Below, one piece after another: positions 1 to 61,554 of a stretch of 64,000 nt of DNA. A program made the translations under genes and the position numbers. The notes beneath the pieces are model-generated. The model did not search any database. It was given only the letters and a program-made list of their open reading frames with translations, and had not been told where the DNA came from. Origin of the DNA: a virus. Lineage: Duplodnaviria > Caudoviricetes. Position 1 is the first letter of the stretch, and every line of letters begins with the position of its first letter. The DNA lies in IMG/VR virus record IMGVR_UViG_3300013426_000014, positions 205,323-269,322 of that record; one strand, written 5' to 3'.

Positions 1-1
1 G

Positions 2-349
2 GACAAACTTGCTCTTTACACGTTCGCGCCGTGGCTTGGCACGCAAAGGATAAGCGATATCCATTGCCGCCGCACCGGCCATCATCCGAAATACAAAGAT
101 AATACCGGTAAGATCGTATATAAAGAAAATATCACTGATGACAATATCGCGGAGATGTTGATTGACTGGGAATCCGCGCGGTTTACTAAGCCGGATAAGC
201 CGTTGGACATGTACGGCACGCTGATACGGTATTATCCGGAGCTCACTGCCCGGGCGTGTAAAGTCATAAGGGAACGGTTCCGTCCCGAAACACGGGTGCA
301 TGATCCCGCCGATATAATACAGGCGATGAGAATCGGGATGTTCTGGTGA
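2..349 (+). CDS. 5'-truncated HD-like (DUF5662-type) protein
   Basis: Frame open from base 2; H..R..HHP and EMLIDWESA motifs; ends TGA-TAA. Confidence 0.55.
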   Translation, partial: DKLALYTFAPWLGTQRISDIHCRRTGHHPKYKDNTGKIVYKENITDDNIAEMLIDWESARFTKPDKPLDMYGTLIRYYPELTARACKVIRERFRPETRVHDPADIIQAMRIGMFW

Positions 350-391
350 TAATTTTTTATTTTGAAAATTTTTTATTTACGAAATATTCAC

Positions 392-399
392 TATCTTTG
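392..399 (+). promoter_or_regulatory. Bacteroidetes-type -7 promoter element (TAnnTTTG), representative copy
   Basis: TATCTTTG here; TATATT(T/C)G-like copies at 6937, 12231, 13840, 18749, 22394 (+) and 27883, 33350, 34126, 44209, 49977, 58287, 59524 (-), nearly all just upstream of gene starts. Confidence 0.7.
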
Positions 400-547
400 C
401 GATACAAAAAAAATGAAAGTTGTTTTGTTTTATTTGCCATGATTGTATAAACCCGTGTCCCGGCCGGGACGGTACCAGACGCGGGTTCATTAAAAGATTA
501 TGAAAAATTTCGGTCCGTCTGATATATAATATATGAATGACGGAAAC

Positions 548-618
548 GCGGTGTTAGTATAACGGTATTATACCGGCTTCCCAAGCCGGGGACGGGGGTT
601 CGACTCCCCTACGCCGCT
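548..618 (+). tRNA. tRNA-Gly(CCC)
   Basis: Cloverleaf; CCGGC-TTCCCAA-GCCGG; GGTTCGA T loop. Confidence 0.93.
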
Positions 619-647
619 CAAAGAATGCTCATTGAAATACAGTTAAT

Positions 648-721
648 TGAGGCGTGATGTAATGGTAGCATTACTGATTTTGGTTCAGTCCGTTCGGGTT
701 CGAATCCAGACGTCTCAACCA
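648..721 (+). tRNA. tRNA-Gln(TTG)
   Basis: ACTGA-TTTTGGT-TCAGT; encoded CCA. Confidence 0.93.
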
Positions 722-723
722 CA

Positions 724-808
724 GATAAGCGGCCATTGCCAGGCCGCGGGATCCTGAAGGGTATATGTGTGGATCGGGCCGGGCAGGAAGGCAATACCAC
801 CGGTTATC
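724..808 (+). ncRNA. Candidate rod-like structured RNA
   Basis: Nested stems GATAA/TTATC, ATTGCC/GGCAAT, GGCC/GGCC, GATCC/GGATC between tRNAs. Confidence 0.4.
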
Positions 809-914
809 GGATCGCTATACAGCTCTGCTTTCGGCGGCGGATGTCCGGATGATAAAAAGCGCCATTCGCGGAATAGCGGTTGCAAAGAAGAGATGACCCC
901 TGCAGGATCAATTT

Positions 915-1003
915 GGAAAGGTGTGATAATTGGTAGTCGGCCGCTCTCGAAAAGCGGTGGTCGGGTAACCGGCTTGCGGGTTCGAGCCCCGCCCTTTCCG
1001 CCA
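915..1003 (+). tRNA. tRNA-Ser(CGA)
   Basis: CCGCT-CTCGAAA-AGCGG; long variable arm; G73 and CCA. Confidence 0.95.
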
Positions 1004-1112
1004 GAATGATGTCCGGCCTTCCTCCGGGAAAACACGGAAATGAGTTACGGTCAAGACTCACGTTAATCAAAATTGTATCGGGACGGTCGCGTCCTGTAGT
1101 TGGATGTCATTT
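1004..1112 (+). ncRNA. Candidate multi-branch RNA directly after tRNA-Ser
   Basis: 13-bp closing stem AATGATGTCCGGC/GTTGGATGTCATT with GU pairs, enclosing three hairpins. Confidence 0.5.
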
Positions 1113-1139
1113 GTTTTCATAACTGTGTTTTTGTTGGTT

Positions 1140-1211
1140 GCGGGTATAGCACAACGGTTAGTGTGTCAGCTTGCCATGCTGGAAATGCCGGTTCGATTCC
1201 GGCTACCCGCT
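1140..1211 (+). tRNA. tRNA-Gly(GCC)
   Basis: TCAGC-TTGCCAT-GCTGG. Confidence 0.93.
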
Positions 1212-1286
1212 CAAAATTTTGAAAAAAGTTTGAAAAAAGTTTGGCAGTTACATATATAATTTATGTTGATTGTCAATAAGATAAAT

Positions 1287-1358
1287 AGCGGGGTAGAGCA
1301 GAGGCAGCTCATCAGGCTCATAACCTGAAGGTCAGGGGTTCGAATCCCTTTCCCGCTA
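1287..1358 (+). tRNA. tRNA-Met(CAT), initiator-like body
   Basis: TCAGG-CTCATAA-CCTGA. Confidence 0.92.
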
Positions 1359-1366
1359 CGAGACAT

Positions 1367-1439
1367 GCGGATATGGTGTAATGGATAACATTCTTGATTC
1401 CGGTTCAAGCGATTTCAGGTTCGAGTCCTGATATCCGTA
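1367..1439 (+). tRNA. tRNA-Arg(CCG)
   Basis: CTTGA-TTCCGGT-TCAAG; A20 in D loop. Confidence 0.88.
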
Positions 1440-1452
1440 CAAGCAGAAATTT

Positions 1453-1527
1453 TGTGGGATAGAGCAGAGGTAGCTCATCAGGCTCATAACCTGAAGGTCG
1501 GGGGTTCGAATCCCCCTCCCGCTACCA
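1453..1527 (+). tRNA. tRNA-fMet(CAT)
   Basis: Near copy of 1287-1358; 1:72 mismatch; CCA. Confidence 0.92.
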
Positions 1528-1537
1528 AAACCGTGAT

Positions 1538-1902
1538 GCCTTCGTAGTTTAACGGTAGAACAATGGTCTTTGAGAATGTTGAATACAGTTTGTATATGAT
1601 GTGTATGAATGCTAGCATTCATCCAGATCTTTATATAGAGTGTATTTGACACAATTGGAGCTTGCAAATCGAAAGGTTTGCAATGGACATGATGATAACG
1701 TTGAACCCGTAACAGGTCACGCTGACGGTAACGACGTCGGAACGGTAGATTTGCCGGCCGCGAGAGAGTAGATAATCATGCACCTGTAGCGATTGATTTC
1801 GTATGGTGAATACGTACTCCAGACCACAACGATTTTTGTCGGCATGGTAACATGCGTGGTAAGCAAAACCATTAAGTGTGGGTTCGAATCCTACCGAAGG
1901 TG
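1538..1902 (+). tRNA. Opal-suppressor tRNA (anticodon TCA, probably Trp) interrupted by a group I intron
   Basis: Exon 1 1538-1570 (GCCTTCG...ATGGTCTT) plus exon 2 1864-1902 (CAAAACCAT...GTTCGAAT...CGAAGGTG) join to ATGGT-CTTCAAA-ACCAT; G73 discriminator. Confidence 0.9.
1571..1863 (+). mobile_element. Group I self-splicing intron, 293 nt, no homing ORF
   Basis: Exon ends in U and intron ends in G; IGS TTGGAG 1655-1660; P3 CATGAT/ATCATG; P4 ACGTTG/CGACGT; P7 GAGAGTA/TACTCC; P9 GCATG-GTAA-CATGC. Confidence 0.9.
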
Positions 1903-1936
1903 CGAATATTAACAGACAGAATTAGATTTATTGATT

Positions 1937-2731
1937 ATGACAGAAACAAAGATGAATACGCTGCTGGCCAGGACAGATCATGCTGCGGCGAGTGTGAACA
2001 AGATGTTTGCCGATTACGGCGCTTTCTTCAAGACGAAGCAGGGCGCATTCAGAGGCGAGAAGAAGACTTTCGAGCCAAGGGCCGGATATTTTGAGGATCC
2101 GTCTAAAATTGGCAATACTAAGGTTGTCACCACGGTCGGAGAGAAACTCGATTGGTTCAATGATCGTCTTAAGAAATATCTTAAGGACGTGTTCACAGTT
2201 GAGGAGACGAATTCCGCTGGCGCGAACAGAGTGGAGCTTGTCGTCAACGGCAGGTCATTCGGAAAGTTTACCGCGCTTGAGCTTATGCGTCTCAAGTCAT
2301 TGCTGACCAACTCCTCGCTTTCCACCGTATATGAAAACATTCCTGTCCGATCAGATGCGGAGGTGTGGAGTCCTGTGACTGATCCTGAGTACGCCGGACG
2401 TGAGGTGTTCCAGACGGAGCTCGTCAAGGGCGTTACCCGTACAACAGAGAATGAGGAGGTGATCCTTAAGGATCCGAATCTCGATCCTGCTCATCTTCCT
2501 TCAAACTATTCGGCGAAAGTGACGGTTAAACGCAAGACCGTCGAGACTGGTGATTACACGCAACAGAAGTTTACCGGCGAGTGGACACAGCGTCAGCGCG
2601 CCGAACTGCTCAAGCGTAAGTCAGATCTTCTCGCCGCCGTTATTGCCGCGCTTAAGGAGGTCAATGACACCGATGTGCAGCTACCGGAGTTCGACGTTGA
2701 TTCCATTGTTGACTATATTACCGAAGGGTAA
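1937..2731 (+). CDS. Hypothetical protein embedded in the tRNA cluster
   Basis: 264-codon ORF with coding-like composition. Confidence 0.8.
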   Translation: MTETKMNTLLARTDHAAASVNKMFADYGAFFKTKQGAFRGEKKTFEPRAGYFEDPSKIGNTKVVTTVGEKLDWFNDRLKKYLKDVFTVEETNSAGANRVELVVNGRSFGKFTALELMRLKSLLTNSSLSTVYENIPVRSDAEVWSPVTDPEYAGREVFQTELVKGVTRTTENEEVILKDPNLDPAHLPSNYSAKVTVKRKTVETGDYTQQKFTGEWTQRQRAELLKRKSDLLAAVIAALKEVNDTDVQLPEFDVDSIVDYITEG

Positions 2732-2940
2732 TTGACAATAAGAGACAGACGCCTTCTCTGATTGGCGTTCAGTAGCACTGATCAAGGATCTGAGCGTGAC
2801 GCGAAACACCTGGATTGATTTTTTCTTTGACATAATAATTTTTATATATTGACAAAAGCTTCAGCTTAAGCATCAACGTTAACAAGATCCTGGACGATCA
2901 AGTTTTAGTGTTGTGTCAATAGCTTTGGCTTTACAGTCAA

Positions 2941-3128
2941 TGTCTTGATGTCAGCGTTTTGATCTATACACTTCAAGACCGCGGTTTCGCGGGTTCGATT
3001 CCCGCATCCCCCTCTACTTTTATTGAATATACGGGGGATTGCTGAAGTGGTTAACAGCGCGGTTTCAGATTTTCACATGAATGAATATCGATAAAGCTTC
3101 AGTATAAATACGTTGAACACATCAGACA
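2941..3128 (+). ncRNA. Permuted tRNA-like RNA (YrlA/Y-RNA-like)
   Basis: T arm GCGGG-TTCGATT-CCCGC and ATCCCCC precede GGGGGAT, the D arm and GCGGT; outer stem 2941-2960 pairs with 3106-3128. Confidence 0.65.
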
Positions 3129-3170
3129 AAATTTGGGGCGGTTTTTTGAGGATATTTGGATTATCGCCCT

Positions 3171-3244
3171 GGCCGGATAGCTCAGTTTGGCAGAGCGCAA
3201 GCCTTGTAAGCATGAAGTCTATAGTTCGAATCTATATCCGGCCG
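3171..3244 (+). tRNA. tRNA-Thr(TGT)
   Basis: CAAGC-CTTGTAA-GCATG with one mismatch. Confidence 0.82.
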
Positions 3245-3253
3245 CGAGAATAT

Positions 3254-3361
3254 AACGGGTTGGCGGAATGGTATACGCGCGCCGCGTGAATTATTTTGCG
3301 GTGTATTGTTTCCGGAAAATTCCAGGGTTCCGGATTGATGGTTCGAGTCCATCACCCGTTG
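3254..3361 (+). tRNA. Atypical tRNA-like gene, anticodon undetermined
   Basis: Perfect acceptor AACGGGT/ACCCGTT, D and T arms, enlarged anticodon and variable arms. Confidence 0.65.
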
Positions 3362-3368
3362 CAAGTTT

Positions 3369-3442
3369 GGTCCCTTAACTCAGTTGGTCAGAGTAACTGA
3401 CTCATAATCAGTAAGTCGGGGGTTCAAGGCCCTCAGGGACCA
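3369..3442 (+). tRNA. tRNA-Ile2/Met(CAT)
   Basis: ACTGA-CTCATAA-TCAGT. Confidence 0.9.
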
Positions 3443-3449
3443 CAAAAAT

Positions 3450-3525
3450 CGGGATGTAGCGCAGTTGGCAGCGCGCCGCGTTCGGGACGCGGAGGTCGGA
3501 GGTTCGAGTCCTCTCATCCCGACCA
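3450..3525 (+). tRNA. tRNA-Pro(CGG)
   Basis: CCGCG-TTCGGGA-CGCGG; CCA. Confidence 0.95.
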
Positions 3526-3529
3526 GTTC

Positions 3530-3602
3530 GGGCTTTTGGTGATAACGGTCAGCACAGCGGCTTCGCATGCCGCAGGTACGAGTTCGATTCTCGTAAAGTC
3601 CA
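3530..3602 (+). tRNA. tRNA-Ala(CGC)
   Basis: GCGGC-TTCGCAT-GCCGC; G3:U70. Confidence 0.93.
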
Positions 3603-3618
3603 CTTTATTTTTACGGAT

Positions 3619-4032
3619 ATGTCAAAAAACAGGAAAGATATTTCAGCGGTGGTTTCTATTGGTGATCATATCGAATATGCGAATTCATCCGATGCGGTTG
3701 ACGCGGTTCTGATGATATTGGAGAAGAATGGAGAGAAGATGACGTAGAAAGAGCTTTCCGACATCATTTTTGCCGCGGTGGAAAATATGCAGAAATCTCC
3801 GGTCGATGTTATATATTCGCTTATCCAGAATCTGGTGAATGACAAGGATCTTGTTATGGTGCAGTCTGCAATTACGTCACATGATGTTGTCAATGATTCT
3901 GATATGGCATATAAGATTTGGTCTGCTGTCACTAAGATGTTCCAGTCTTGTTTCGCGCCGACCGATCTTCTGAACAAGATGCTTAACCTGGTAAAGGCCA
4001 TGTATAAAGAACTGTACAGGTCAAGTTGGTAA
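3619..4032 (+). CDS. Hypothetical protein with one in-frame TAG (3745-3747)
   Basis: ATG 3619 is in frame with ORF 3778-4032; EKMT*KELSDII. Confidence 0.5.
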
Positions 4033-4141
4033 TATCTGTAATTTTGGATTTTACGAACTTTTTATAATGAATTTTTCATAATTGTTTTTTGGTTTCTCCG
4101 CGGCAGTGACGTCCCGGAGTTTTTTTATTATAAATAATTAT

Positions 4142-4264
4142 ATGAAACGTTTTTATAAAGTACAAGAAGAGTTTGACATGTCGGAGATATCCGACACGGA
4201 CTGCACTGATACGGATATGTCCGTTTTTTGAAAGTATATTGAATTATTGGATTTTATAACTTAA
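4142..4264 (+). CDS. Minimal FD-motif family peptide
   Basis: MKRFYKVQEEFDMSEISDTDCTDT; TATAAATA just upstream; TGA at 4229. Confidence 0.45.
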
Positions 4265-11552: not shown

Positions 11553-11626
11553 GGGCGTGTGGGATGAGCGGTTTAGTCCACGGTCTGCAAAACCGTTTGA
11601 CGCCGGTTCGAATCCGGCCTCGCCCT
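11553..11626 (+). tRNA. tRNA-Cys(GCA)
   Basis: ACGGT-CTGCAAA-ACCGT; U73. Confidence 0.93.
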
Positions 11627-11755
11627 CGGATTTGGATATTTAATGTGATATATACAATACACATAGATTTAATAGATTTAAGTTTTTGATTACACCTCTT
11701 TTTTGGTCCCGGATTTGTTGTGAAATAAGTTCGGGACATTTTATATATAATAATC

Positions 11756-44608: not shown

Positions 44609-45034
44609 TTATATGAACATCATCCCGCCATGCTGTATTATAGTTTGCCGCATCTTGTCGTTGTCTTTCACGATGAACAGATTGTTGGCTTTGACGGCCG
44701 GACTTATGTTATATCCGGTTTTACACATGCACCGGACGCACATTCCAGGATACATCACTGACTTGCACATGCCGATGATCCGCCGGCCGCGGCCAACCGC
44801 CGCGGCGATTATCCCGCGGGGCGCCGGCCGCTCCGCGGAGCAGTACGGATATGAGTTATGCATCCAGCCAGTGTCACACCACACCGGAAAACAGTAGTCG
44901 ACGCCATTGCATCGGTCAAACAATATATAATGTTTGCGATCATCCGATTTCATGACGTCATAAATTACTTTGAGATCATGATCTGTCGGTATCTCTTTTG
45001 TCTTCTTCACCATGATATCACCATTAAATTTCAC
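44609..45034 (-). CDS. PxWC-family protein
   Basis: PVWC...YPYC...CVRCMCKTGYN. Confidence 0.7.
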   Translation of the reverse strand: MKFNGDIMVKKTKEIPTDHDLKVIYDVMKSDDRKHYILFDRCNGVDYCFPVWCDTGWMHNSYPYCSAERPAPRGIIAAAVGRGRRIIGMCKSVMYPGMCVRCMCKTGYNISPAVKANNLFIVKDNDKMRQTIIQHGGMMFI

Positions 45035-45494
45035 CGCTCCGCATCCTTCTCCACGGGAAAACGGTCATGTTGAAATGATCGCTCCATGGTTTCGTCCGCC
45101 GCATGTATTCGACAAGCCCGCACAAAGTGATAGATCCTTCGCGGACCATCGTCCTGTTCCATTTACACATGTCGTGCAGCATGTCGGCGGCGTGCATACT
45201 GTGCCGCGACCTGTACCACCTACAGAACCTGCACCGGCCGGTCCGTCTCGCCGAGCCGGGCGTCATGTTCTCCATCTTGAACGGCGAACATTTCGAGTCA
45301 CCGTACTCGTCCGACTCCGCGCGCGGCGCGCACCATTCCGGACGCAGGACCATTGCGTCCGTGTACGGATCGGTGTCAACCACGACCCGCGCGCCGGCGG
45401 CGTTCCTGCCTTTTATCCCGGTCATGACGATGTCACCGGGTTTCGGATCAGACCGACGGATGGCCTCCGCGGTTTTCGCGTATATAATTTTCAT
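45024..45494 (-). CDS. PxWC-family protein
   Basis: PEWC...C...CRFC. Confidence 0.7.
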   Translation of the reverse strand: MKIIYAKTAEAIRRSDPKPGDIVMTGIKGRNAAGARVVVDTDPYTDAMVLRPEWCAPRAESDEYGDSKCSPFKMENMTPGSARRTGRCRFCRWYRSRHSMHAADMLHDMCKWNRTMVREGSITLCGLVEYMRRTKPWSDHFNMTVFPWRRMRSGEI

Positions 45495-46054
45495 TACTTT
45501 TCTTTATATGTACACTTCCAAAAACACGCGTTTGGATTCATTTTGCTTTCGGTTTTGCCCATTGTGCACAAGAATTCGTAATCAGCGTTAATCATGTCGC
45601 GCATCCGGTTTATGCCGAGCAAATTTCCCTTTGAACCCCTTGACAGTTTATGCGCGTGCCGTATGATGTTCAGCATATACGCGCCCTTGTATACGCCGCC
45701 GACACACATGACGCAATCCACACATTCCGCGTATCTCGCGTTGTCGTTTATCTTGCAGACATCCGTCCGGCCCATGTCGACCGCCGTGTCGAACGGGGCG
45801 GGCATCGTGTCGCTGAATATCTGCCGGCACCAGCCGTCGGGCGGAACCGCCCCGGAATCGTGAAACCTGTGCGCGCACCATTCAGGGACGTTCCTGTACG
45901 GAGCGAACGACAGCGTATCGTCCCACGCGCATCGCGTGACCGTGCCCATGCCGAGACGCCGCCTCCCCCGTGTGTTTATGTTCACGACGGCCGCTTTCCG
46001 CTCGATCTCGTTCACCGGCAACATGAACAGCGCGTCATCTGATCCCTTCGTCAT
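45494..46054 (-). CDS. PxWC-family protein
   Basis: PEWC...C...RYAECVDC...GGVYKG, as in 20495. Confidence 0.7.
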   Translation of the reverse strand: MTKGSDDALFMLPVNEIERKAAVVNINTRGRRRLGMGTVTRCAWDDTLSFAPYRNVPEWCAHRFHDSGAVPPDGWCRQIFSDTMPAPFDTAVDMGRTDVCKINDNARYAECVDCVMCVGGVYKGAYMLNIIRHAHKLSRGSKGNLLGINRMRDMINADYEFLCTMGKTESKMNPNACFWKCTYKEK

Positions 46055-46668
46055 ACCGCATGGTTTTTGTAAAGTCTCTGTGGTCTCCACGCGTCCCGGG
46101 ATCCGGTCAACGTCTCGTAAAGCACCGTCGGTATGAGTCTCGTGTCACACATATCGCGCCACTTCATACGCTCAAGCGCCGGGCGCGGGATATTCATGTA
46201 AACGTTTATGGCATGAAACATCGACTGGACTATAAGGTTATAGTTTCTTCTGTTGTTCAACGGACAGCGCATGCAGCGCGTGTACCGCACCGGCGCGCGG
46301 TCCTCCAGACATCCGTCGAGATATGAGTAAAGATGCGCCGCCGTCTTTTCCTGACTTCCGGCGCCGGAATTTCCATGCGCCTCCGCCTTGTGATCCGATA
46401 TGAATCTCGACTCGCCCTTAATCGCGCGGCAGACTTGCGGCGCGGAACGCGGCCGTACGGCGTCGCACCATTCCGGGACGGAACGGACCGGCACCATATC
46501 CGAGCTGAACGCAGTGTACCTGTCCAACACGTACGGATTCGTTATCGATCTCGACCTGAATCCGGCGCGGCGCCGTCCGCGGACCGCCGACACGACCGGG
46601 TCGTAACCGTTATACTCGACCCGCTCCGTCATCTGATCCACCGGGCCGTATGTTGTATTATCAATCAT
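46051..46668 (-). CDS. PxWC-family protein
   Basis: PEWC...C...RYTRCMRC...NYN. Confidence 0.7.
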   Translation of the reverse strand: MIDNTTYGPVDQMTERVEYNGYDPVVSAVRGRRRAGFRSRSITNPYVLDRYTAFSSDMVPVRSVPEWCDAVRPRSAPQVCRAIKGESRFISDHKAEAHGNSGAGSQEKTAAHLYSYLDGCLEDRAPVRYTRCMRCPLNNRRNYNLIVQSMFHAINVYMNIPRPALERMKWRDMCDTRLIPTVLYETLTGSRDAWRPQRLYKNHAV

Positions 46669-46727
46669 GCAGCGAATATAGCGATAAAAAACGTAAATTA
46701 AAAGCGGAACGTGAAATTTTTTCGTTC

Positions 46728-47297
46728 CTATATTTTCCTGCCGCGCCGCCACATGGCCGACGAAATAAAATCGACGACATACTCCGGCCACGACACGTCG
46801 CCGTACTTATCACCGGGATCGCGCTCTACACGATACATGTCATATAATGAGCTGTAATGTGACAGCAAATCCCGGACGGACAGGTTGTAGTTCCTGTTCA
46901 GCCCGCATCGCATGCATTTCTCCGATATCCGGGCGGGGATAATCCCGCTGCGGAAAACCGGTTTGAACCCGTCCGCGTACGCGGCGTCGAACGCCATCAT
47001 GCTGCACACGTGCCGCCCGTCGAACGCCGCGTGCAGATGTCCGTAATCCCGGGAGTCGAGCCCGTCCAGCGCCTTGCACCACTCCGGCACCCACGCGCAC
47101 AAACATTTCTCGGCCGGACCCATTATGACCGGAACGGATCCGTAACCCGGCCGGCGCCGTCCCCTGACCCGCCGGATTCTTTCCGCGGCGGCGTCAGGGT
47201 CGGGACATCCGGTCCACATCACGGACCGGACGAACGGGACAGCCGACGCCGCCGTGTCGTTCATGTTCGCGGTGGTGATCCTTTTCAATACTATCAT
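46728..47297 (-). CDS. PxWC-family protein
   Basis: RGRRRPGYGS; PEWC; CMRC..NRNYN. Confidence 0.7.
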   Translation of the reverse strand: MIVLKRITTANMNDTAASAVPFVRSVMWTGCPDPDAAAERIRRVRGRRRPGYGSVPVIMGPAEKCLCAWVPEWCKALDGLDSRDYGHLHAAFDGRHVCSMMAFDAAYADGFKPVFRSGIIPARISEKCMRCGLNRNYNLSVRDLLSHYSSLYDMYRVERDPGDKYGDVSWPEYVVDFISSAMWRRGRKI

Positions 47298-47722
47298 TGC
47301 CCCGTCCTTTTGTTGTTTATTATGTCCATCGCCGTCCTTCTGACCCTGTGGACTTCAATTTCCGCCGCGGCGCGCCTGGCCTTCGCCATCACCGCCGTGT
47401 TATAACCGGATTTCATCGCGCATCCGCAGCAGAACGCAGCATGCAGCCGGACGCTCTCGCACATGTTCGAATTCATGACGAACTTCTGCTCGACGCCGGC
47501 CGGCGGCTCGTGGTGCATGGCATAACCGCCCGCGCCGAGCGCGCGCCATACGTGAATGATCCTGTCGCACCGCCGGCCGGGCGGAGTGAGCGTGTCTTTC
47601 GACGTCAGCTTGCACCAGACAGGCGGCGGGACCGACCCCGGACCATACAGCGCGCCGAAACGGAAACGGACGGCGTCGTCCGTCGTGTATACAGCTGTCG
47701 TATGTTTCTTATTATATCTCAT
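47294..47722 (-). CDS. PxWC-family protein
   Basis: PVWC...C...CCGC..KSGYN. Confidence 0.7.
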   Translation of the reverse strand: MRYNKKHTTAVYTTDDAVRFRFGALYGPGSVPPPVWCKLTSKDTLTPPGRRCDRIIHVWRALGAGGYAMHHEPPAGVEQKFVMNSNMCESVRLHAAFCCGCAMKSGYNTAVMAKARRAAAEIEVHRVRRTAMDIINNKRTGQ

Positions 47723-47734
47723 ATCAAATCAATA

Positions 47735-48124
47735 TCATCGCACAGGCATACCGCGGCGTCCGCGCCGTGCCGCGGCGCGTTCCAAATCCCGCCTTCTGAA
47801 GAACGACATCAGTCCGATGTTATACCCGCGCTTGTACCTGCATACCACGCATGACGACGGGTAAAGCACCATGTCATGCATGCCGCGCATATCCGCCGCG
47901 GCCGCGATTTCGTCCGGGATCCGCCGGTAGGCGGCCGCCGGACAGAACGGATAAGGCGCCGGTGATCCCGCGATGATCCGTCCGCCGTCGCACCACGCCG
48001 GAACCGACGCCGAACCGTTCCACATGTCACACATGTCAGCGCAGACAAAATGCCGCCTCGCGGTGTTTTCCGGCAGGGAACCGTCGAGAAACCCGGCGGT
48101 GATGCTCGTGAACCCGTCAATCAT
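47735..48124 (-). CDS. PxWC-family protein
   Basis: PAWC...YPFC...CVVC.YKRGYN. Confidence 0.7.
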   Translation of the reverse strand: MIDGFTSITAGFLDGSLPENTARRHFVCADMCDMWNGSASVPAWCDGGRIIAGSPAPYPFCPAAAYRRIPDEIAAAADMRGMHDMVLYPSSCVVCRYKRGYNIGLMSFFRRRDLERAAARRGRRGMPVR

Positions 48125-48641
48125 CTGCCGTCAAGTTTTTCGAGATCCTCCACCCGTCGAACAGGAACGGCTCTATCTGCCGCGGCCAATCCGGCACGCC
48201 GTCCGTGAACTTGTCGGCATGCTGGGACCAAAAACGCTCCACTTGCCGGAACCGTCCCCGAAGCTCCATATACCCGCCGACGTTCTTGTACGCGCCGCGG
48301 CAAAAGTCGCAGCCCTTCCGTATACAGTCGGTGTATCTGCATCCGCAGGACGAAGGGTCCAGAGCGGACTCCTTCATAATACAGTCACATGACAAGGCGG
48401 TCCTGCTCCCCATTATCCGGTCCGGGACCGGATCCTGACGGAAGAATAAGCACCATTCTGGAAAATTTCTGTACACGATATCGCCGTCCGCGTCCTGGAC
48501 CGCCCTTGTGCCGGAGCCGTAACCGGGGCGGCGTCTTCCTTTCCGCGCGGTGATCACGCTGATCTTCTTCTCCTTGAGCTGCCGGCGGGCGCGCTCAACA
48601 AGTTCCTCCGCCGGTATCTTGTATTGTGATGTTCCCTCCAT
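48117..48641 (-). CDS. PxWC-family protein
   Basis: KGRRRPGYGS; PEWC; RYTDC...GAYK. Confidence 0.7.
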   Translation of the reverse strand: MEGTSQYKIPAEELVERARRQLKEKKISVITARKGRRRPGYGSGTRAVQDADGDIVYRNFPEWCLFFRQDPVPDRIMGSRTALSCDCIMKESALDPSSCGCRYTDCIRKGCDFCRGAYKNVGGYMELRGRFRQVERFWSQHADKFTDGVPDWPRQIEPFLFDGWRISKNLTADD

Positions 48642-48660
48642 TCTGAAAGTAAATTTACGA

Positions 48661-49167
48661 TTATACAGGTTCCGCGGAACGGACGTGCCGTCTGATGTTA
48701 TACATCCGTCCCACCATATCTCGCACGGAGTCTGTCCCGCCGAAATAATATTTCATATCGGACGCGGTCTTCAGGTTATACAGCCGGCTCGCCTTGCACC
48801 GGAGACAGCCCCTGACAGGGGACGCGCCGGAATTCGGCCGGCCGTCCCCTGACATGCTGTACATATCGTTCTCCGCGGCGATCTCCGGACAGGTGTATAT
48901 GACGGCGCCGTTGTATTCGCGGAGCAGCTGGTCGTCCTTCAACCGGCACCATTCCGGCGTCAGTATCGTCTTGACCCGGACGTACATCCCGCATGGCAGC
49001 GCGGCATTCCGGTCCATCTCGTCATAGCTGAAATACACCGCGTCCGTGATCGCCGTCCGTCTGCCCGGCGCGGTCCTGCCTTTCATCATGGTCAGCTCCG
49101 AGAGCCGTGAGAGCCGCCTGACCGCCTCGCGTTCGGCGTCCCGATTTGTTTCGCATACCGTCGTCAT
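48661..49167 (-). CDS. PxWC-family protein
   Basis: PEWC...C...CLRC...LYN. Confidence 0.7.
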   Translation of the reverse strand: MTTVCETNRDAEREAVRRLSRLSELTMMKGRTAPGRRTAITDAVYFSYDEMDRNAALPCGMYVRVKTILTPEWCRLKDDQLLREYNGAVIYTCPEIAAENDMYSMSGDGRPNSGASPVRGCLRCKASRLYNLKTASDMKYYFGGTDSVRDMVGRMYNIRRHVRSAEPV

Positions 49168-49179
49168 ATAATCCGCATC

Positions 49180-49545
49180 CTAACCCCCGAACTCGACCGG
49201 GTATTTCGCGAACAGCCGCGCCGCGCGCCACCGGACCGACGTGTTGTACCCGTTCCTTTTCTCGCACGACATGCAGCGGATGTACGATCCTTCCGTCGCC
49301 CGCCCGCCCTGCCGCGCGGATGATGTGGTGCCGGCGATCATACGGACGAGCATGTCGCAGTGGAAGCGGACAGGCCAGCCGCCGTCAATGTCGTCAAAGA
49401 ATCGGTCATGACACCACACGGGAAGCCGGCCGTACCGGCACCATCTCTCCTGCAAGCCGACCTTGACCGCCGGGTCGTGATATGTCCGCGTCCTTATGAC
49501 GCGGCCTTCGAATTCATTCATTTCCTTCATGATCATTTTATGCAA
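49180..49545 (-). CDS. PxWC-family protein
   Basis: PVWC...C...CMSC...GYN. Confidence 0.7.
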   Translation of the reverse strand: MHKMIMKEMNEFEGRVIRTRTYHDPAVKVGLQERWCRYGRLPVWCHDRFFDDIDGGWPVRFHCDMLVRMIAGTTSSARQGGRATEGSYIRCMSCEKRNGYNTSVRWRAARLFAKYPVEFGG

Positions 49546-49972
49546 GCCGGCCCGCGGGGATTCCCCGCCGCCATTTCCTTCCGAACATCACCATATCCGC
49601 GCCCGCGGGTTTGAACACGCCCGGCGGCAGGGGTCTGATGAACGCCGAACCCGACGAGCCGAACCCCCTGCCGTAGAAATCCATATCCCACATCCGCCGG
49701 CACGCGACCATGTTATAGACGCTGTAGAACCGGCAGAACTTACACCTGACGCACTGGCGGGGCGTCACGTAACAGAACGCGTCCGTTCCGTTCTCGTCGT
49801 ACAGGGCCATGCAGTCATACACGGGGGCGGAAACACGGTCCGCCGTCACCGGCCGCCCGTTCGAACACCATTCCGGGACCGTGATCGTATTCCCGGCGCC
49901 GGTTCTCATCCGTATGAGTCTCCTTCCCGCCGCCGACCGTCCCGGCTCTCGTATGATCTCAATTATATTCAT
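49538..49972 (-). CDS. PxWC-family protein, first in operon
   Basis: PEWC...C...CVRC; promoter 49977. Confidence 0.7.
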   Translation of the reverse strand: MNIIEIIREPGRSAAGRRLIRMRTGAGNTITVPEWCSNGRPVTADRVSAPVYDCMALYDENGTDAFCYVTPRQCVRCKFCRFYSVYNMVACRRMWDMDFYGRGFGSSGSAFIRPLPPGVFKPAGADMVMFGRKWRRGIPAGRLA

Positions 49973-50053
49973 GACGCAAATATAATAAAATTCCGGGAAA
50001 CATGGAAACGTTTCCCGGGATTTTTTTAGCGTTTGTTTTGCTTCCCCGCCGGT

Positions 50054-51196
50054 TTACCTTACCGTGTTCGCGACTGTCACGGCGCGGAGGACCGCGGCCT
50101 TGTTATACGACATCATCTCGATGATAATCCCCTCCCCGCACGAGCAGTCGTCAGCTATCAATTCGGCCAGCCCGTTATATTTTCCGGACCCCGGCGCGCC
50201 GATGTTCACCATCTCCGTCTGCCGATTCGCGCCACTCGCTCTGTCCTTCGCCACGTCCGGCGACATAAGCGCAATCTGCCCGCCGATCTCGCGCCGGACG
50301 CCGTCGCCGAACAGCGGGACGCATCTGCCGTCGTCATCCCACGGCAGAACACGCGTCCCGCACAGTAACAGGGAATTGCCGATCCGCCGCGGCGCGCCCT
50401 TCGCCGACGTCAATGAGCTGCAACATGAGAAATCGGCGAAGTCGCGGACGACATCCGGCGATCCCGTCAGGTCGTTGACCTCTGTCCGCCATGCGGCGCC
50501 GCCGGCTGACGTATGTGACACGAACCTCGCGACACCGAAGTCGTCACACTCCCGCGGCGCGCCCTCAAACGACCGCAGTGGACGGAATCCGGATTCCGGG
50601 CCGGCCGGATCATAGTAGAATATATAATACGGCTTCTCGCGCGGCGGCGCCGGAACGATCATATAACTCCCGTCCACGTACGACGGCGACCCGACGAGCG
50701 TCCCGTCCGCGCGCGGCATCGCGTACACCCAGAAGCTGCTGCTGTTATGATTTATCCCGTCAGGATAAACCGGGACAATCGCGTACTCGTGTATATTCGC
50801 CGGGATCTTGTCGAGATCCAGTATGACGCCGGTGAAGCCGCCGCGGACCGTGACATACACACAGAACATGTCATCCGTCCTGTCGAACCGTATCCTGTGA
50901 CCGAACATGTTCCCGCGCCGCCGGATTGACGTCGACATGTTACAATCTGAATCAAAATAATAACATACCGCCGGGACGAGCGACCGTTCGAATTCGGCCA
51001 TCTCCACGGCGGCCTGATCCATGTCGCCGAACGTGTCCGTGTAGTCGACGTCGGACATGTCCGAAAAGTCGAACCCCTCGCGTATTGCCGCGCCGACAGA
51101 TGTCCGCGCGTCCGCGTCCCATATGTATGTGTCTGTCATGCGGTCCGCCATGATATTCGTCATGTCCTGTGTTTTGTTTGTTACAGCCGCGGCCAT
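50054..51196 (-). CDS. FD-motif family LRR-like protein
   Basis: IREGFDFSDMSDVDYTDTF; GSP/GAP repeats. Confidence 0.85.
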   Translation of the reverse strand: MAAAVTNKTQDMTNIMADRMTDTYIWDADARTSVGAAIREGFDFSDMSDVDYTDTFGDMDQAAVEMAEFERSLVPAVCYYFDSDCNMSTSIRRRGNMFGHRIRFDRTDDMFCVYVTVRGGFTGVILDLDKIPANIHEYAIVPVYPDGINHNSSSFWVYAMPRADGTLVGSPSYVDGSYMIVPAPPREKPYYIFYYDPAGPESGFRPLRSFEGAPRECDDFGVARFVSHTSAGGAAWRTEVNDLTGSPDVVRDFADFSCCSSLTSAKGAPRRIGNSLLLCGTRVLPWDDDGRCVPLFGDGVRREIGGQIALMSPDVAKDRASGANRQTEMVNIGAPGSGKYNGLAELIADDCSCGEGIIIEMMSYNKAAVLRAVTVANTVR

Positions 51197-51651
51197 TTGA
51201 TCACCTCTTGCACATTTTTTATTCCGTCGACGGAGGACGGCGCGCCTAATGTGTCGTCATAATTTTTCGTGATGATCTTGACGCAAACACAGCCGGACCG
51301 CGATTTTATCCGCCACGGGACGCCGTACTTCTCTGTGAACCGCCTCAGCCCGCCGGCGCCGTCCTTTAGCAGGACACTGCAGTACAGGACCGTGATCCAT
51401 CGGTCCATGGAGAGGACCTTGTCCGCGTCCCACGTCATGATCCGGCCGGCGTCGGGATCGTCGTCCATGCTGATCAGATCCGACGATCCGACGTCGATCC
51501 GGTCCGCCAGCGCCGCGTTCGTGATCCGCATGTCACGCCGGAGCGCGTCCGCGAAAGCCGACACCATCTCCGCGTTCTCGTCAATACTGGAAAATGTATC
51601 AGTGTAGTCGACGTCCGACATGCCGGATAAATCAATTTTCTCGTTTAACAT
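51181..51651 (-). CDS. FD-motif family short protein, paralog of 4270
   Basis: LNEKIDLSGMSDVDYTDTF; ALRRDM.ITN; TWDA.KV. Confidence 0.85.
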   Translation of the reverse strand: MLNEKIDLSGMSDVDYTDTFSSIDENAEMVSAFADALRRDMRITNAALADRIDVGSSDLISMDDDPDAGRIMTWDADKVLSMDRWITVLYCSVLLKDGAGGLRRFTEKYGVPWRIKSRSGCVCVKIITKNYDDTLGAPSSVDGIKNVQEVIKWPRL

Positions 51652-51676
51652 TTATAAAAACCGAATAATTTTAATC

Positions 51677-54640
51677 TTATACCAGCCCGTTCATCACGCA
51701 CAGCCATTTCGCGCACGCGGCCGCGTCGCCGTACACCGTCACGCGCGCCCGGGCGGCGGACAGATCCGGGAACATCATGCCGTACAGTCCCTGCGGCCAG
51801 TTCCGCGGGGAGCCGGAGCCCAGCCACATGGACGACGACTCCGACTTCCGCCGGCCGGCGACGTTCGCGCCCGGATGCGGGACGTCGACTTTGATCTCGC
51901 CGCACCGCCGGGACACCCCGTCCGTGAACGCCGGCACGACGTTCCCCTTGCCGTCCCACAGGAACGACGTCGTCGGACGCTGCATCTTCCTCGCATCCGG
52001 GAACGTCACGGTGAAGTTGTTGCCGACCCGTTCCGGCGCGCCGTCGAGGAAGCCCGGGCCGTAAGCGAGTCTCGGACCCGGTGCCTCCATCACGCATTCG
52101 ATGTTGCCGGTGACCTCCTTCGGCGCGCCGGCAAGCGACCTGCAGACAGACGGCCTGAGGCCGATGACGTCCGTCAGGCTCCCGTACACGCCGGCGTTCA
52201 CGTCGCCGCCGACGAATTCGGGCGAGCCGATCAGCGAGCCGAAACGCTTGCCTGTTCCCGGCCCGGCCGGCAGTATGAACAGCTGGCATTTCGTTATGCC
52301 CGGCCCGGGCTCGAGCCGCCAGCGAGCGGACTTCGACCATGACGCCGGCGCCGCCTTGAGATCCAGCGCCGCCTCGGCGATCCTGCCGTCAGACGGGGCC
52401 GCGAACGCCGGTGTGTCGAACATCGAGGTCGTCATGACGCCCGGCGCGTCGGACAGCGTGACCGTCCATCCGTCCGCGGACGAGCCGGACACCGCGCGGG
52501 CGAACAGCGGGTCGAGGACGGGGTCGGACCCCCTGACCCACCCGTTCTTCCCGGCGGACGTGCGGACCTGCAAAAGGAGCGCCTTCCGGAGGCCGGCGGT
52601 GAACGCAGACTTCTCCGCCGCGGCCTGGTCCATGTCGCTGAAAGTATCCGTGTAGTCGACGTCGGACATGTCTGAGAAGTCGAAGCCCTCCGACACGGCT
52701 TTCCGCCGGGACGGTTTTCCGTCCTTTCCGGACGGCTCAGCCGGCCGCGTGTCGATACATATGAGACCGGACGGGGCGTCAATCCCTTTCATCGCGTTCA
52801 TGTAAACCGTCCTTCAGTATGACGTCGACGCGTCGGCGATCCCGGCTTCTTTTCATCTGTCCTTTCCGGCGGTGACGGTGAAAACACGGAATTTCCCGTT
52901 CTTCTCGCGTACCACGCGCGGCAGCGTGCGATCGGCGGACCTGACGTTCACATTGCCGCCGACACGCGCCCGGCCGGGCGCCGGGAGGATCCTCTCGCAC
53001 GCGCCGTCCCGGCCGGCCCGCGGGGCCGCGATGACGCCGGCCACATCGAGGTCGCCGCCGATGAACGCCGGCAGTCCGGACATGAAGTCCGGACCCTTCT
53101 GCCGCGAGCTGTTATTCGGGTCATATATGTACCTGAACTCCAGCGTCACCGACCCGTCGACATACTCCGGCGCGCCGGCGAGCGACGTCAGGGAGTCTGA
53201 CTCGACATAGAGCGACGCGCCGAGGTCCAGCCTCCGCGGAGCGCCGGACATCGACTTCACCGCCGAGTTGACACGCACGTCAATGCCGGCCACCTCCGCC
53301 GGCGCGCCGTGAAGGTCCCCCGCCGCCGACGGGTTGAGCGTGATCGTGACGTCGTCGATCAGGGCGGTTACATCGCCGACGACCCCTCCGTTATCGAACA
53401 CCCGTCCCGCTTTCAGCGACCATCCCCCGTACGCGTCGGCCAGCCGGGCGAACCCGCCGCGGGACAGATCGATCCCGATATTGATCTCGTACGGCGCGTA
53501 CTCGGCGCCGTTCAGATCGACGTCGAGCCTGACGATCACATTGCCGCCGCCGTCGCGACTGAGCGGGTCGCCGTTGTCGTCCCGTGCCGTGAGGATCACC
53601 TTGACGTCGATGTCGGCGTCATCGCGAAGATCGCTGCCATAGTTGATCATATCCGATTCGCACGCCTTCTCCACCGCGACACACGGCCCCTCGCGGTCGT
53701 CGATATCGCTCAGCGTGTCGGTGTAGTCGACATCGGACCTGTCAGAGAAGTCGAATCCCTCATTAATCCCGCCGCTCCCGCCGCGGCGTTTCATATGGTC
53801 GCGCGACGCCTTCTGATAGCACGGATCTCACTGCGTGCTGTCTAAATAATCGGCAGGCAGTTCGCCATGTATGTCGCTGAGCGACCGGATCTCCCGCGGG
53901 ACAAGATTCGCCGGGAAAAGATCCGCGCAATCCGCCCCGCCTGTGATCACATACAGCCTGATATCGGTCGGCGCCGGCGCGCCGAACTGATCGCCGATGT
54001 CAATCAGCGATCACGTCATTCATTTCGGAAGGCGGTCCACCGTCCATCGATTGAACGACGCGCCGTACATCGCGGCGATCGCGCGCCGCATTGACGACCG
54101 CGCGGCGGCAGACCGGAAATCCATGATGAGCGGGAACGAATCCCATGATGTCAACGTCTTCACCTCGTCGGTGATGAAGAACCTGATCCCCCAATTGTCA
54201 CGTGGAAGGGAATAAGTCGACGTCGTCATCCATATGGACTGTTTGCTCTTAATTTGGCGGCCGGCCGGCGAGAGCGGCGTCATCGTCAGGCCGGGCGCGC
54301 GGGAGATCATCTCGGCGGCGCTTGCCGCCGTCATCAGTTCGACCCGCCCGGACGACTGGATGAACATCGGATCGAACACCGGACTGTCACATCTTATCCA
54401 CTTGACATGTTTCGGCACATACATACCGCCGGCATTCAACGCCACGCCGGCGTCAGACACCCGCACCCGGGATATCCGCCGCATCCATTTAATGAAAAAT
54501 TCAGGCGCGGCGCGGTATTGCATATCATTGTCATCCATGTCAGACAATGTGTCGGTATAATCGACATCGGACATGTCCGAGAAGTCGAAATCCTCGTTGA
54601 TCTCCCGTCTTCATCCGTGTGTTTTATTACAAGCGTCCAT
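51677..54640 (-). CDS. Three FD-motif units in one frame: 987-aa polyprotein if TGA=Trp, otherwise ORFs 54020-54574, 52853-53794 and 51677-52801
   Basis: Only TGA (54611, 54020, 54011, 53828, 52853, 52814) between ATG 54640 and TAA 51677. Confidence 0.75.
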
Positions 54641-54766
54641 AATAATTTTGTTCTTTTCTTTTTTACCGTTATATAGTAAAAATGAATAACGTAGATATAA
54701 TTATTTAACACGCAAAAAGACGGGCGATTTCATGTCCCGCCCGTCTTTCCTTTCGATGATGCAGTC

Positions 54767-55960
54767 TTACTGCTTCGACAATTTGTCGGACAACTGGATG
54801 AGCATGTTCAGCCCCATCGCGTCCATCGCGGTGCCGCCGGCGTTTCCGGATGATCCGGTCGACACGATCCTCGGCAGCGCGACCTTTGACATCGCCTCCG
54901 CGACGCCGACCCGGGTTTTGTACTCCCACTCGGCCCTCTCCTGCGGGGTGAGGCCGGCCGCGACCTTGAGCCTGTTCGCCTCCGCCTCGGCCTGGCCCTC
55001 GGCGATTATCTTCTTCTTGTCGAACTCTGCCTTCTCAGCGGCGAGCCTTGACACCTCGCGCTCCTGTTCGGCCTTGGTGACGGCGACGGCCTTCGCCTTC
55101 TCCTGCTCCCACCGCGCCCTCGCGGCCGCTGCCTTTCCCTCCTCCTCGGCGCGGATCGACTCCTGCTGGGCGGCGGCGGACTTGGCCTTGCTGGTCTGAA
55201 TGAGCATATTCGCCTCCTGCTGCTGGGCTATCTGGTTGTTGACCTGGTCGGAATATCCTATCTTAGAAATGGAAACCTGCCCTATCTCGAGCCCGTAATA
55301 TCGGAACGGTGACGACTCTGATCTCTTATAGCCGCCCGGGCTGTCCGGGTCCGGGACGAGATCCGCGACCTTCGTCTGCTTCTTCTCGCCGGTGACGGGA
55401 TCCTCCGTCTCGACGACGCGGACGGTGGTCTTGTAGACGCCGTTATTGAGCTGGTCTGTTATGTAGTATATAAGATCGTTCTTTTTCTCCGCGTAGGACT
55501 CGAACGCCGACATGAGCGGTCCGGACGCGTAGATGACCTTGTTGACGGTCTGCTTCACCAGGTCGGTCATGAGCCTGTCCATCCCGTTGTAGTCTGTCTG
55601 TATCCTGGCGAGGTGTTCGACGTCGGTCGGCAGTTTGACCCTGAGCGACCCGTATATGGCGCCGTCGGACGCGTCGTTGAATATCACCTGTATGGGCGAC
55701 CCGATCTGCTCGCCGTTCCCGTCGGACGACCCGAACCACAGCTGCTGCGTCTTGTAATACCTGGTGACGTCGCCGAATCCCTGCCACTTGACGCCGGGCG
55801 TGGTCCAGTAGACCATGCGGCCGGTGAACGGGTACTGGTTGACGACGATCTCCTCGTTCTTCACGTTCTCCCCGAGCTTGCCGACCATGGTCAGGCCGAT
55901 GAGGAGGACGACGCCGAGAATGAGCACGGCGATTTTCTTTGGTGAAACTTTCACTGACAT
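54767..55960 (-). CDS. SPFH/Band 7 membrane protein
   Basis: N-terminal TM, SPFH-like core, Ala/Glu coiled coil; terminator 54714-54750. Confidence 0.8.
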   Translation of the reverse strand: MSVKVSPKKIAVLILGVVLLIGLTMVGKLGENVKNEEIVVNQYPFTGRMVYWTTPGVKWQGFGDVTRYYKTQQLWFGSSDGNGEQIGSPIQVIFNDASDGAIYGSLRVKLPTDVEHLARIQTDYNGMDRLMTDLVKQTVNKVIYASGPLMSAFESYAEKKNDLIYYITDQLNNGVYKTTVRVVETEDPVTGEKKQTKVADLVPDPDSPGGYKRSESSPFRYYGLEIGQVSISKIGYSDQVNNQIAQQQEANMLIQTSKAKSAAAQQESIRAEEEGKAAAARARWEQEKAKAVAVTKAEQEREVSRLAAEKAEFDKKKIIAEGQAEAEANRLKVAAGLTPQERAEWEYKTRVGVAEAMSKVALPRIVSTGSSGNAGGTAMDAMGLNMLIQLSDKLSKQ

Positions 55961-56057
55961 TCTTTTCTTCTGGTTAAAAATGTTGAACAAAAATGAAAAC
56001 AAAAATGAAAGGGGCGGGCGGAAAATCCCGCCCTTTCGCAAGGTGATCCGCCGGGCG

Positions 56058-56336
56058 TTACTCAGACGCCGGCATCTTTTTTCTTTTCCGTTTCGGGACG
56101 GACGCGGTCGTGTCGTCCACCGCCGCCGGTTCCCTCTCCGGCGCCTTGTCCCTGACGGCGTCTTCCTTCCGTGACGGATTCCCGGACGCGAACAGCCCGG
56201 CGAACGGGATCAGCGCGGACCATGACGAGAACCTCTCCCCGTCCGCGTCGACGATCCCGAACATCGCGAGCGCGACGTAACCGTAATACAGAAGCGCGCA
56301 CAGGATGACGGCGCCGATTATGAGCCTGAACACCAT
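56058..56336 (-). CDS. Small membrane protein
   Basis: Hydrophobic N-terminus; WSALIPF. Confidence 0.65.
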   Translation of the reverse strand: MVFRLIIGAVILCALLYYGYVALAMFGIVDADGERFSSWSALIPFAGLFASGNPSRKEDAVRDKAPEREPAAVDDTTASVPKRKRKKMPASE

Positions 56337-56340
56337 ACCG

Positions 56341-57297: not shown

Positions 57298-57429
57298 TGT
57301 TTGTGAAAACAGTTTTGTTTGTTTTTGAAAGCTAAAGAGTCATTCGCCGGCCTCCGGGCCGCGGCGTTCAGCCCCCGCGCCGTTTCCGCTCCCGGCGGGC
57401 GCGCGCCGGTTTCGCCACTTGTTATCCCG

Positions 57430-58260: not shown

Positions 58261-58340
58261 ATTATCTGGCGTTAAAATTCATAACGCGAATATAGCGCTT
58301 TCTTTTCATATACGGAAATATTTCCGGAAAAATTTTTTCG

Positions 58341-58649: not shown

Positions 58650-58677
58650 AAGCTATTGCTCTGTTTTTCCTGTTCTT

Positions 58678-61486: not shown

Positions 61487-61554
61487 ATGTGATCCCGTTT
61501 TGTCCTTTGAATTATTTATAGCGGGCGGAGATGCCGACACTTCGGACGCCGGAA

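Follow-up and report, generated by a model that had tools for sequence, protein, structure and literature searches.

The locus at 1538-1902 is, as far as sequence and comparison can show, a real and functional tRNA(UCA) gene that is split by a group I intron, and the phage that carries it reads TGA as tryptophan (Trp) in its proteins, as its coding sequences show. Very probably, the tRNA is spliced, charged with Trp and used to read the TGA codons of the phage, and the intron is a maintained mobile element. The analysis supports the anatomy of the intron, its family membership, the splice junction, selection on the ribozyme structure and the assignment of TGA to Trp. An intron-split tRNA(UCA) combines elements of known kinds, namely the group I introns of tRNA genes and the suppressor tRNAs of phages. 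Full-text literature searches did not turn up any phage suppressor tRNA described as interrupted by a group I intron, which is not proof of absence.

The phage and its split tRNA gene

The phage genome is about 265 kb long and has a G+C content of 50%. The IMG/VR record, which is linear according to its IMG/VR class, comprises 269,322 bp with an estimated completeness of 87% (CheckV); the window, meaning the whole 64-kb stretch of DNA that was analyzed, is its last 64 kb. The gene adjoining the split tRNA is also present in nine ENA assemblies of approximately 110-263 kb, five of which are approximately 263.4 kb and some of which have more than 1,000x coverage. The phage is highly abundant in the samples behind ERZ26859177, ERZ26859191 and ERZ26858448, with contig coverages of 1,400-4,300x. 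Across these nine assemblies, the identity of window 1500-1950 is 99.3-100%, and the sole difference within the intron lies in an unpaired joint. The G+C fraction rises from ~0.44-0.48 to ~0.59-0.60 at either end of the record (window ~45000-64000 and genome 1-10000), and these high-G+C ends would form a single block of ~30 kb if the genome were circular or permuted. Additionally, at genome 190058-193149 (L010:10058-13149), a DNA polymerase fragment of 493 aa is followed directly by a 536-aa HNH/homing-endonuclease gene, and a mobile element may interrupt this polymerase gene.

The split gene belongs to a tRNA array on the + strand. A tRNA-Met (1453-1527, + strand) lies 10 nt upstream in the same array, and just downstream is a DUF7873 gene (1937-2731, + strand) that serves as the synteny anchor to a sister phage. 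ARAGORN called 33 tRNA genes at genome 202-222 kb, including a tRNA-Trp(CCA) and a tRNA-Cys(GCA); none of these 33 has a UCA anticodon. In a promoter and terminator scan of window 1-4200, the counts were the same as in shuffled sequences, and the split gene has no signal of its own. No match to the locus was obtained with blastn against INPHARED phages, and an exact 17-mer of the 5ʹ exon had no match in IMG/VR. The DUF7873 protein, used as a single query, retrieved no related loci, and a DNA search across five related records gave generic T-loop matches only.

An earlier note on this DNA had described two tRNA halves around a 293-nt insert, and both the halves and their coordinates are as it gave them. 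When run with introns permitted, ARAGORN finds a single tRNA, at 1538-1903, whose anticodon is tca and whose annotation i(34,293) denotes a 293-nt intron after position 33. The 5ʹ exon (1538-1570, + strand; ARAGORN -i) contains the 5ʹ strand of the acceptor stem, the D arm, the 5ʹ strand of the anticodon stem and the loop bases C32, U33 and U34. The 3ʹ exon (1864-1902, + strand) continues with C35, A36, A37 and A38, followed by the 3ʹ strand of the anticodon stem, a short variable region, the T arm and the 3ʹ strand of the acceptor stem; it ends in the discriminator G73 (1902), and CCA is not encoded. Joined in silico at 1570|1864, the exons yield a 72-nt tRNA with a clean 7/4/5/5 cloverleaf, the loop CUU|CAAA, U33 and the anticodon UCA. 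The choice of junction matters, as a join moved by one base gives the anticodon GCA or UUA. The junction CUU|CAAA proposed in the note is the one at which ARAGORN arrives when introns are allowed, and the same loop occurs in an uninterrupted homologue. This intron-less gene, found on another viral contig (L134:5558-5653), reads GGTCTTCAAAACCAT unbroken across the predicted junction. The uninterrupted loop confirms the spliced product and shows that a tRNA of this kind can be made without the intron. A search by pattern across 48 related records yielded no convincing uninterrupted UCA tRNA.

The locus might alternatively encode a cysteine tRNA, either as a tRNA-Cys(GCA) at 1832-1903 or through splicing at 1569|1863. 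Default ARAGORN indeed calls a tRNA-Cys(gca) at 1832-1903, and a GCA cloverleaf results when the exons are joined at 1569|1863. However, the default call is built from P9 of the intron, taken as the 5ʹ half, and the true 3ʹ exon, and the Rfam tRNA model scores it at 17.4 bits versus a cut-off of 29. Moreover, G1863 is fixed as the last intron base by the family alignment, the discriminator is G73 and not the U73 that is characteristic of tRNA-Cys under established identity rules, and a normal tRNA-Cys(GCA) is called by ARAGORN at 11553-11627. A cysteine tRNA at this locus is hardly credible. The expectation that standard tRNA scans would overlook the split gene proved correct, since default ARAGORN returns this false tRNA-Cys and the Rfam tRNA model remains below its cut-off. 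Any automatic annotation of the phage will probably include the false gene. A selenocysteine tRNA was also considered and is ruled out by the 7/5 stems and the short variable arm.

The spliced tRNA(UCA) has G73, C35 and A36, all three compatible with Trp identity, and its pair 1-72 is G1.U72. G73, to which the note had pointed as a feature fitting Trp identity, is present, and G73 and G1.U72 are both common to the split tRNA and the phage's own tRNA-Trp(CCA). In E. coli, A1-U72 is an identity element of tRNA-Trp; the relatives L205, L152 and L243 have A1-U72 at this pair. Both a split tRNA of the same intron clade (L205:6520-6830) and the uninterrupted homologue (L134:5558-5653) have an extra hairpin at the position of the variable arm, the loop of which contains CCA, like the anticodon loop of tRNA-Trp. 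The window tRNA is without this hairpin.

Anatomy and family of the intron

The insert (1571-1863, + strand) is a 293-nt group I intron with no ORF. It belongs to the tRNA-intron family, is IC3-like and occupies the site after U34 (3Ug in Williams' naming). The note had claimed a complete group I core with P3, P4, P7, P9 and a terminal G, and every one of these elements is present. All helices from P1 to P10 can be drawn with standard pairs only, the P3/P7 pseudoknot is formed, and the fold of the insert is more stable than that of shuffled sequences (z = -5.2).

All elements of the intron lie on the + strand. The 5ʹ strand of P1 (1568-1573) consists of exon CUU and intron UGA and pairs with 1655-1660, placing the 5ʹ splice site after U1570. 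P1 comprises C1568-G1660, U1569-A1659 and the wobble U1570.G1658 at the splice site, together with three intron pairs; the exon part of 3 bp is as the note had it, and the intron pairs go beyond that claim. The internal guide UUG-GAG (1655-1660), which combines part of P10 with part of P1, is aligned to the guide positions of the family. As had been proposed, its GAG pairs with exon CUU and its UUG (1655-1657) pairs with CAA (1864-1866) of the 3ʹ exon to form P10. P2 (1662-1683) is a hairpin with a GAAA loop, and the 5ʹ strand of P3 (1688-1693) pairs with its 3ʹ strand (1775-1780). The P4-P5-P6 domain (1698-1760) is composed of P4 (1698-1703/1732-1737), P5 (1707-1715/1722-1728) and P6 (1738-1760), with the A-rich joints AAC and UAA. 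The 5ʹ strand of P7, G(A)GAGUA (1764-1770), has a bulged A1765, and G1764 and G1766-A1770 pair with U1815-C1820. Within P7, the pair G1766-C1819 probably forms the binding site for guanosine. After the P8 hairpin (1781-1808), the 3ʹ strand of P7, UACUCC (1815-1820), is followed by the family motif CAGACCACAA. P9 (1824-1859) contains two inner hairpins, the second of which is capped by GUAA. The terminal G, or omega G (1863), directly precedes the 3ʹ splice site and is the last position of R2, a covariance model of the family described below; introns of the family end in GUAAG.

The P1 loop contains a 75-nt hairpin (L1; 1577-1651, + strand) with a fold energy of -31 kcal/mol, and the R2 match begins only at 1649. 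Neither the sister intron nor the intron family has this hairpin, and a search of the genome for it as a dispersed repeat found no other copy. With just 3 bp of P1 contributed by the exon and 85 nt of loop between splice site and guide, folding might be slowed. In minimum-energy folds, the guide UGGAG (1656-1660) pairs over 5 bp with CUCCA (1816-1820) of the P7 3ʹ strand. Such pairing competes with P1 and P7 and may be due to chance; the complementarity depends on a P7 pair flip that is common to the window intron, L249, L205 and L243.

The note had called for a check with the Rfam group I model, and this check was negative: Intron_gpI (RF00028) matches neither the region nor any other part of the genome, even at E<=10. 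Related jumbo phages have numerous group I introns that the same model does match, including some located within split tRNA genes, and the strings AGAGACUA and UAGUCCAGACYACAA are common to the window insert and the RF00028-matched introns. This two-part motif is present at a minimum of 119 loci in IMG/VR. Among the matches listed, the variable P7 pair is C-G in 113 cases and G-C in 6, with no mismatch under a pattern that permitted one, and the motif is enclosed in 72 of the 74 intron-containing tRNAs called by ARAGORN. Sixty-eight junctions among the matches listed were fixed by the rule of U at -1 and a terminal G; the corresponding host tRNAs are Leu(UAA) in 46 cases, CAU in 7, Asn in 6, Arg in 3 and UCA in 3, with one each of Phe, Thr and CUA.

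The covariance model R2 was built from 37 non-redundant viral tRNA introns, most of them from Leu(UAA) genes, with the window intron left out. It has a single match to the window, at 1649-1863 (86 bits, E 6.7e-20), which spans the full model length, ends on G1863 and is the only one in the whole 269-kb record. The guide positions of the model fall on AAUUGGAG in the window intron, and no non-standard pair was flagged. This match bears out the proposal that the insert is a group I intron which, like that of tRNA-Leu(UAA), is located after U34. A single-sequence model, R1, gave no match with default filters; with the filters off, its two best matches fell on true tRNA-intron cores, but with E values of 0.09 and 0.16. 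The RF00028 cut-off is reached by the family members L144 (63.1 bits) and L208 (62.6 and 70.2 bits), and L163 is also matched, whereas RF00028 misses L205 and L152, which are introns in UCA tRNAs of the same clade. Because members of the same family match RF00028 and other UCA-tRNA introns fail to do so, the Rfam miss of the window intron reflects the reach of the model. RF00028 is without bacterial seed sequences (Williams 2020, bioRxiv 10.1101/2020.01.27.920355).

The tRNA-Leu(UAA) intron of cyanobacteria and plastids ("Leu.3Ug", IC3; 10.1101/2020.01.27.920355) shares with the window intron the site after U34 (CUU|), a U.G pair at -1, the terminal G and the arrangement of the core, in which P2 and P9 are capped by GNRA loops, and the two fall into one covariance-model family. 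Unlike that intron, the window intron resides in a short-arm phage tRNA with the anticodon UCA, has a P4-P6 domain diverged enough for RF00028 to miss it, has one flipped P7 pair (G-C for C-G) and carries the 75-nt hairpin in its P1 loop.

The structure is also evident from comparison within the family. When 46 family introns were aligned to R2 and P7 was added as a pseudoknot, 96.9% of cells were paired, versus 72% in shuffles and ~35% with partners slid, a figure that leans towards structure because the alignment was fitted to R2. P7, which lies outside the R2 model and is hence free of this bias, is 99.6% paired. Compensatory change was found in 39 of the 46 pairs in these introns, a level reached by none of 500 shuffles. 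Furthermore, a DUF7873 orthologue (71% identity) on a 318-kb ENA contig identifies a sister phage with its own split tRNA (L249:9358-9642), located ~360 nt upstream of the orthologue with a tRNA-Lys in between. The sister gene has the loop CUU|CAAA and a 212-nt intron that scores 115 bits with R2; its ARAGORN junction was off by three bases, and the rule of U(-1) and terminal G restores UCA. Between the window and sister introns, 33 of 46 pairs are identical, 1 has a change on one side, 12 have compensatory changes and none is broken. With 12 compensatory and no broken pairs, the intron structure has been under selection in this lineage. Within a gap of the sister tRNA array (L249:6583-7285), there are two weaker R2 matches (29 and 22 bits), in a stretch that ARAGORN -i interprets as a tRNA-Phe with a 615-nt intron; further split tRNAs may exist there.

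In a tree of 46 introns, the five from tRNA(UCA) genes (window, L249, L205, L152 and L243) form one group with 100/100 support. The nearest neighbours of this group are mostly Leu(UAA) introns, as placed by a midpoint-rooted tree in which the surrounding forks are weakly supported. The anticodon loops of tRNA(UCA) and tRNA-Leu(UAA) differ only at position 35. The grouping fits a single move of the intron into tRNA(UCA).

The branch of the window intron is long (0.48), which, like the missing RF00028 match, could be taken to mean that the gene is dead, with an intron that no longer splices and with TGA read by a host tRNA or by near-cognate recognition through tRNA-Trp(CCA). The conserved pairing argues against this: each of the 46 family pairs is standard, and in all 12 cases where both sides of a pair differ from the sister, pairing is retained. 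The near identity of the nine assemblies, with the only intron difference in an unpaired joint, points the same way, as does the phage tRNA-Trp(CCA), which has a normal 5-bp anticodon stem. Loss of function is thus very unlikely indeed.

On the favored reading, that of a spliced and working tRNA(UCA), a group I intron belonging to the bacterial and viral tRNA family separates positions 34 and 35 of the anticodon in a single tRNA gene. The precursor would be transcribed together with the surrounding tRNA array. The intron would fold into P1-P10, and a guanosine would attack after U1570; the terminal G1863 would then bring in the 3ʹ splice site, and ligation of the exons would release the 72-nt tRNA with the loop CUUCAAA and G73. 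On this anatomy, splicing would presumably be carried out by the intron itself. Since the phage needs the tRNA, the intron would be maintained in a functional state; it is most simply seen as a mobile element, not a regulator.

TGA as a tryptophan codon and the question of a gate

That the phage reads TGA as Trp, as the note had supposed, is shown by protein alignments at two TGA sites and by coding that continues past most TGA codons. The match of P0001 (726 aa) to one PHROG family runs unbroken through an in-frame TGA. This TGA, codon 218, aligns to W in 57 of 64 homologues, and TGA codon 416 of a second gene (L006:5651-7201, - strand) aligns to W in 35 of 35, with the caveat that some database homologues may themselves be TGA=W translations (one case was seen). 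A comparison that used no homology took strong coding segments ending in TGA or TAA; the in-frame coding score stays high past 82% of the TGA codons (n=68) versus 11% of the TAA codons (n=71). Approximately five genomic TGAs look like true gene ends, each of them followed by TAA or TAG within 2-16 codons.

The TGA codons are unevenly distributed. There are 93 in-frame TGA versus 195 TGG codons in genome 84-170 kb, and 5 versus 83 in genome 170-250 kb. The TGA-poor block (genome 170300-250000, which includes window 1-44700) contains the DNA polymerase and all tRNA genes. PHROGs and Pfam named few of the TGA-rich genes, so the term "late genes" is presumptive. The sister phage (L266) is more heavily recoded; TGA is commoner there than TGG for Trp in most genes examined near the P0001 orthologue, with 22 TGA versus 6 TGG in one example. 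The genes of the sister that carry TGA include those for a DnaB-type helicase and a metallophosphatase, and all complete genes end in TAA.

Phage opal suppressor tRNAs (Ivanova 2014; PMC7886860; 10.1101/2021.08.26.457843) are likewise tRNA(UCA) species associated with TGA at Trp positions, and opal-recoded phages have a TGA-poor block around the replication genes, as does the phage studied here. However, the known opal suppressors were found uninterrupted, whereas the window gene is split. The tRNA(UCA) described here would be charged with Trp and would read in-frame TGA codons, which lie mostly outside the near TGA-free block of 170-250 kb. The host presumably stops at TGA, in which case the tRNA would deserve the name of suppressor.

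The host may, on the other hand, read UGA as Trp itself. The gene would then be an ordinary supplementary phage tRNA-Trp(UCA), there would be no change of code, and the intron would be a passenger. TGA is hardly a stop anywhere in the genome, the main Trp codon of the sister phage is TGA, replication genes included, and a search for the RF1 and TrpRS families found neither encoded in the phage genome, all of which would suit such a host. The tRNA-Trp(UCA) of Mycoplasma and Spiroplasma (code 4) has the same anticodon and reads UGA as Trp; it is, however, cellular and uninterrupted and serves a wholly changed code, whereas the window gene is phage-borne and split. The bacteria known to read UGA as Trp are Mollicutes of low G+C content, unlike the 50% G+C of the phage genome. 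Additionally, the 170-250 kb block nearly avoids TGA, a pattern described for phages of standard-code hosts (10.1101/2021.08.26.457843). A host with UGA as Trp is considered improbable, and the reading as a suppressor in a standard-code host is preferred.

The note had further suggested that splicing acts as a timer or gate. Under this proposal, slow or conditional self-splicing would delay the tRNA(UCA) so that TGA-containing late genes are translated late only. The split gene does sit in the near TGA-free block with the DNA polymerase (5 TGA vs 83 TGG), which agrees with the published view of early genes kept in the standard code, but this block bears on the tRNA and not on the intron. The association of the tRNA(UCA) introns, which form one group (100/100), has outlasted much divergence, and the long L1 hairpin and the predicted 5-bp pairing of guide and P7 3ʹ strand could slow folding. 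However, the sister intron has no L1 hairpin, and the same intron family interrupts ordinary tRNAs (Leu(UAA) in 46 of 68, and CAU, Asn and Arg, among the matches listed). An intron-less homologue of the tRNA exists, the split gene is without a separate promoter or terminator signal, and the TGAs in the DnaB-type helicase gene of the sister are a poor fit to a late-only tRNA. None of the tests supports the gate, and it is judged unlikely.

A precedent for a ribozyme coupled to the maturation of phage suppressor tRNAs is provided by the theta (HDV-like) ribozymes (PMC10879173). These adjoin phage tRNAs, one in five of which are suppressors, and a part in code switching has been proposed for the ribozymes next to suppressors, which lends the gate some plausibility. 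Theta ribozymes cut the 3ʹ trailer, whereas the window intron lies inside the anticodon, so that no anticodon exists before splicing; introns are not mentioned in the theta ribozyme paper (PMC10879173). A broader proposal, about as doubtful as the gate, is that the intron is no passenger and has been kept with tRNA(UCA) through >30% protein divergence in a TGA-recoded clade since a ribozyme-dependent anticodon is advantageous. Read-through of UGA could thereby be delayed or dosed, or the suppressor could stay harmless or unrecognized until the phage controls the cell, with the L1 hairpin and the pairing of guide and P7 3ʹ strand tuning the splicing rate.

Further split tRNAs and the annotation of recoded phages

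Further split UCA and CUA tRNAs are found in other viral contigs, among the R2-family matches listed. One of them (L117:1477-1794; record G011, 24% G+C) has the corrected loop CUCU|AAA, the anticodon CUA and a junction after position 35, and is by its anticodon an intron-split amber suppressor; L241 likewise has CUA. Within the tRNA array of a distant relative (record G002, 364 kb), a 480-nt group I intron (RF00028 42.5 bits) interrupts a tRNA-Lys(UUU) after U34 (L111:1373-1926). On a 126-kb viral contig with a split tRNA(UCA), the tRNA array also includes a tmRNA gene (L205:4160-4600; RF00023, 61.9 bits). The tRNA introns of Lak megaphages (Devoto 2019, PMC6784885) are likewise conserved and missed by bacterial tRNA-finder settings. 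In passages of that report, these introns are called "enigmatic" and are not classed as group I, and the tRNAs named (Tyr and Thr) are not suppressors.

Only 35% of TGA-recoded genomes have a detectable suppressor (Borges 2021 preprint, 10.1101/2021.08.26.457843), and recoded genomes without one were also noted by Yutin 2021 (PMC7886860). The split tRNA(UCA) provides one concrete cause of such "missing" suppressors in recoded phages: an anticodon cut by a group I intron is missed by default tRNA finders and by Rfam, and the gene is thereby hidden. A small model of the R2 type recovers the gene, and such a step could join pipelines for the annotation of phage genetic codes. The practical value of the finding lies in annotation, and the regulatory question is so far unsupported; for that question, the 365-nt transcript would allow a possible effect of ribozyme splicing on the timing of a code change to be studied in an experimentally simple system.
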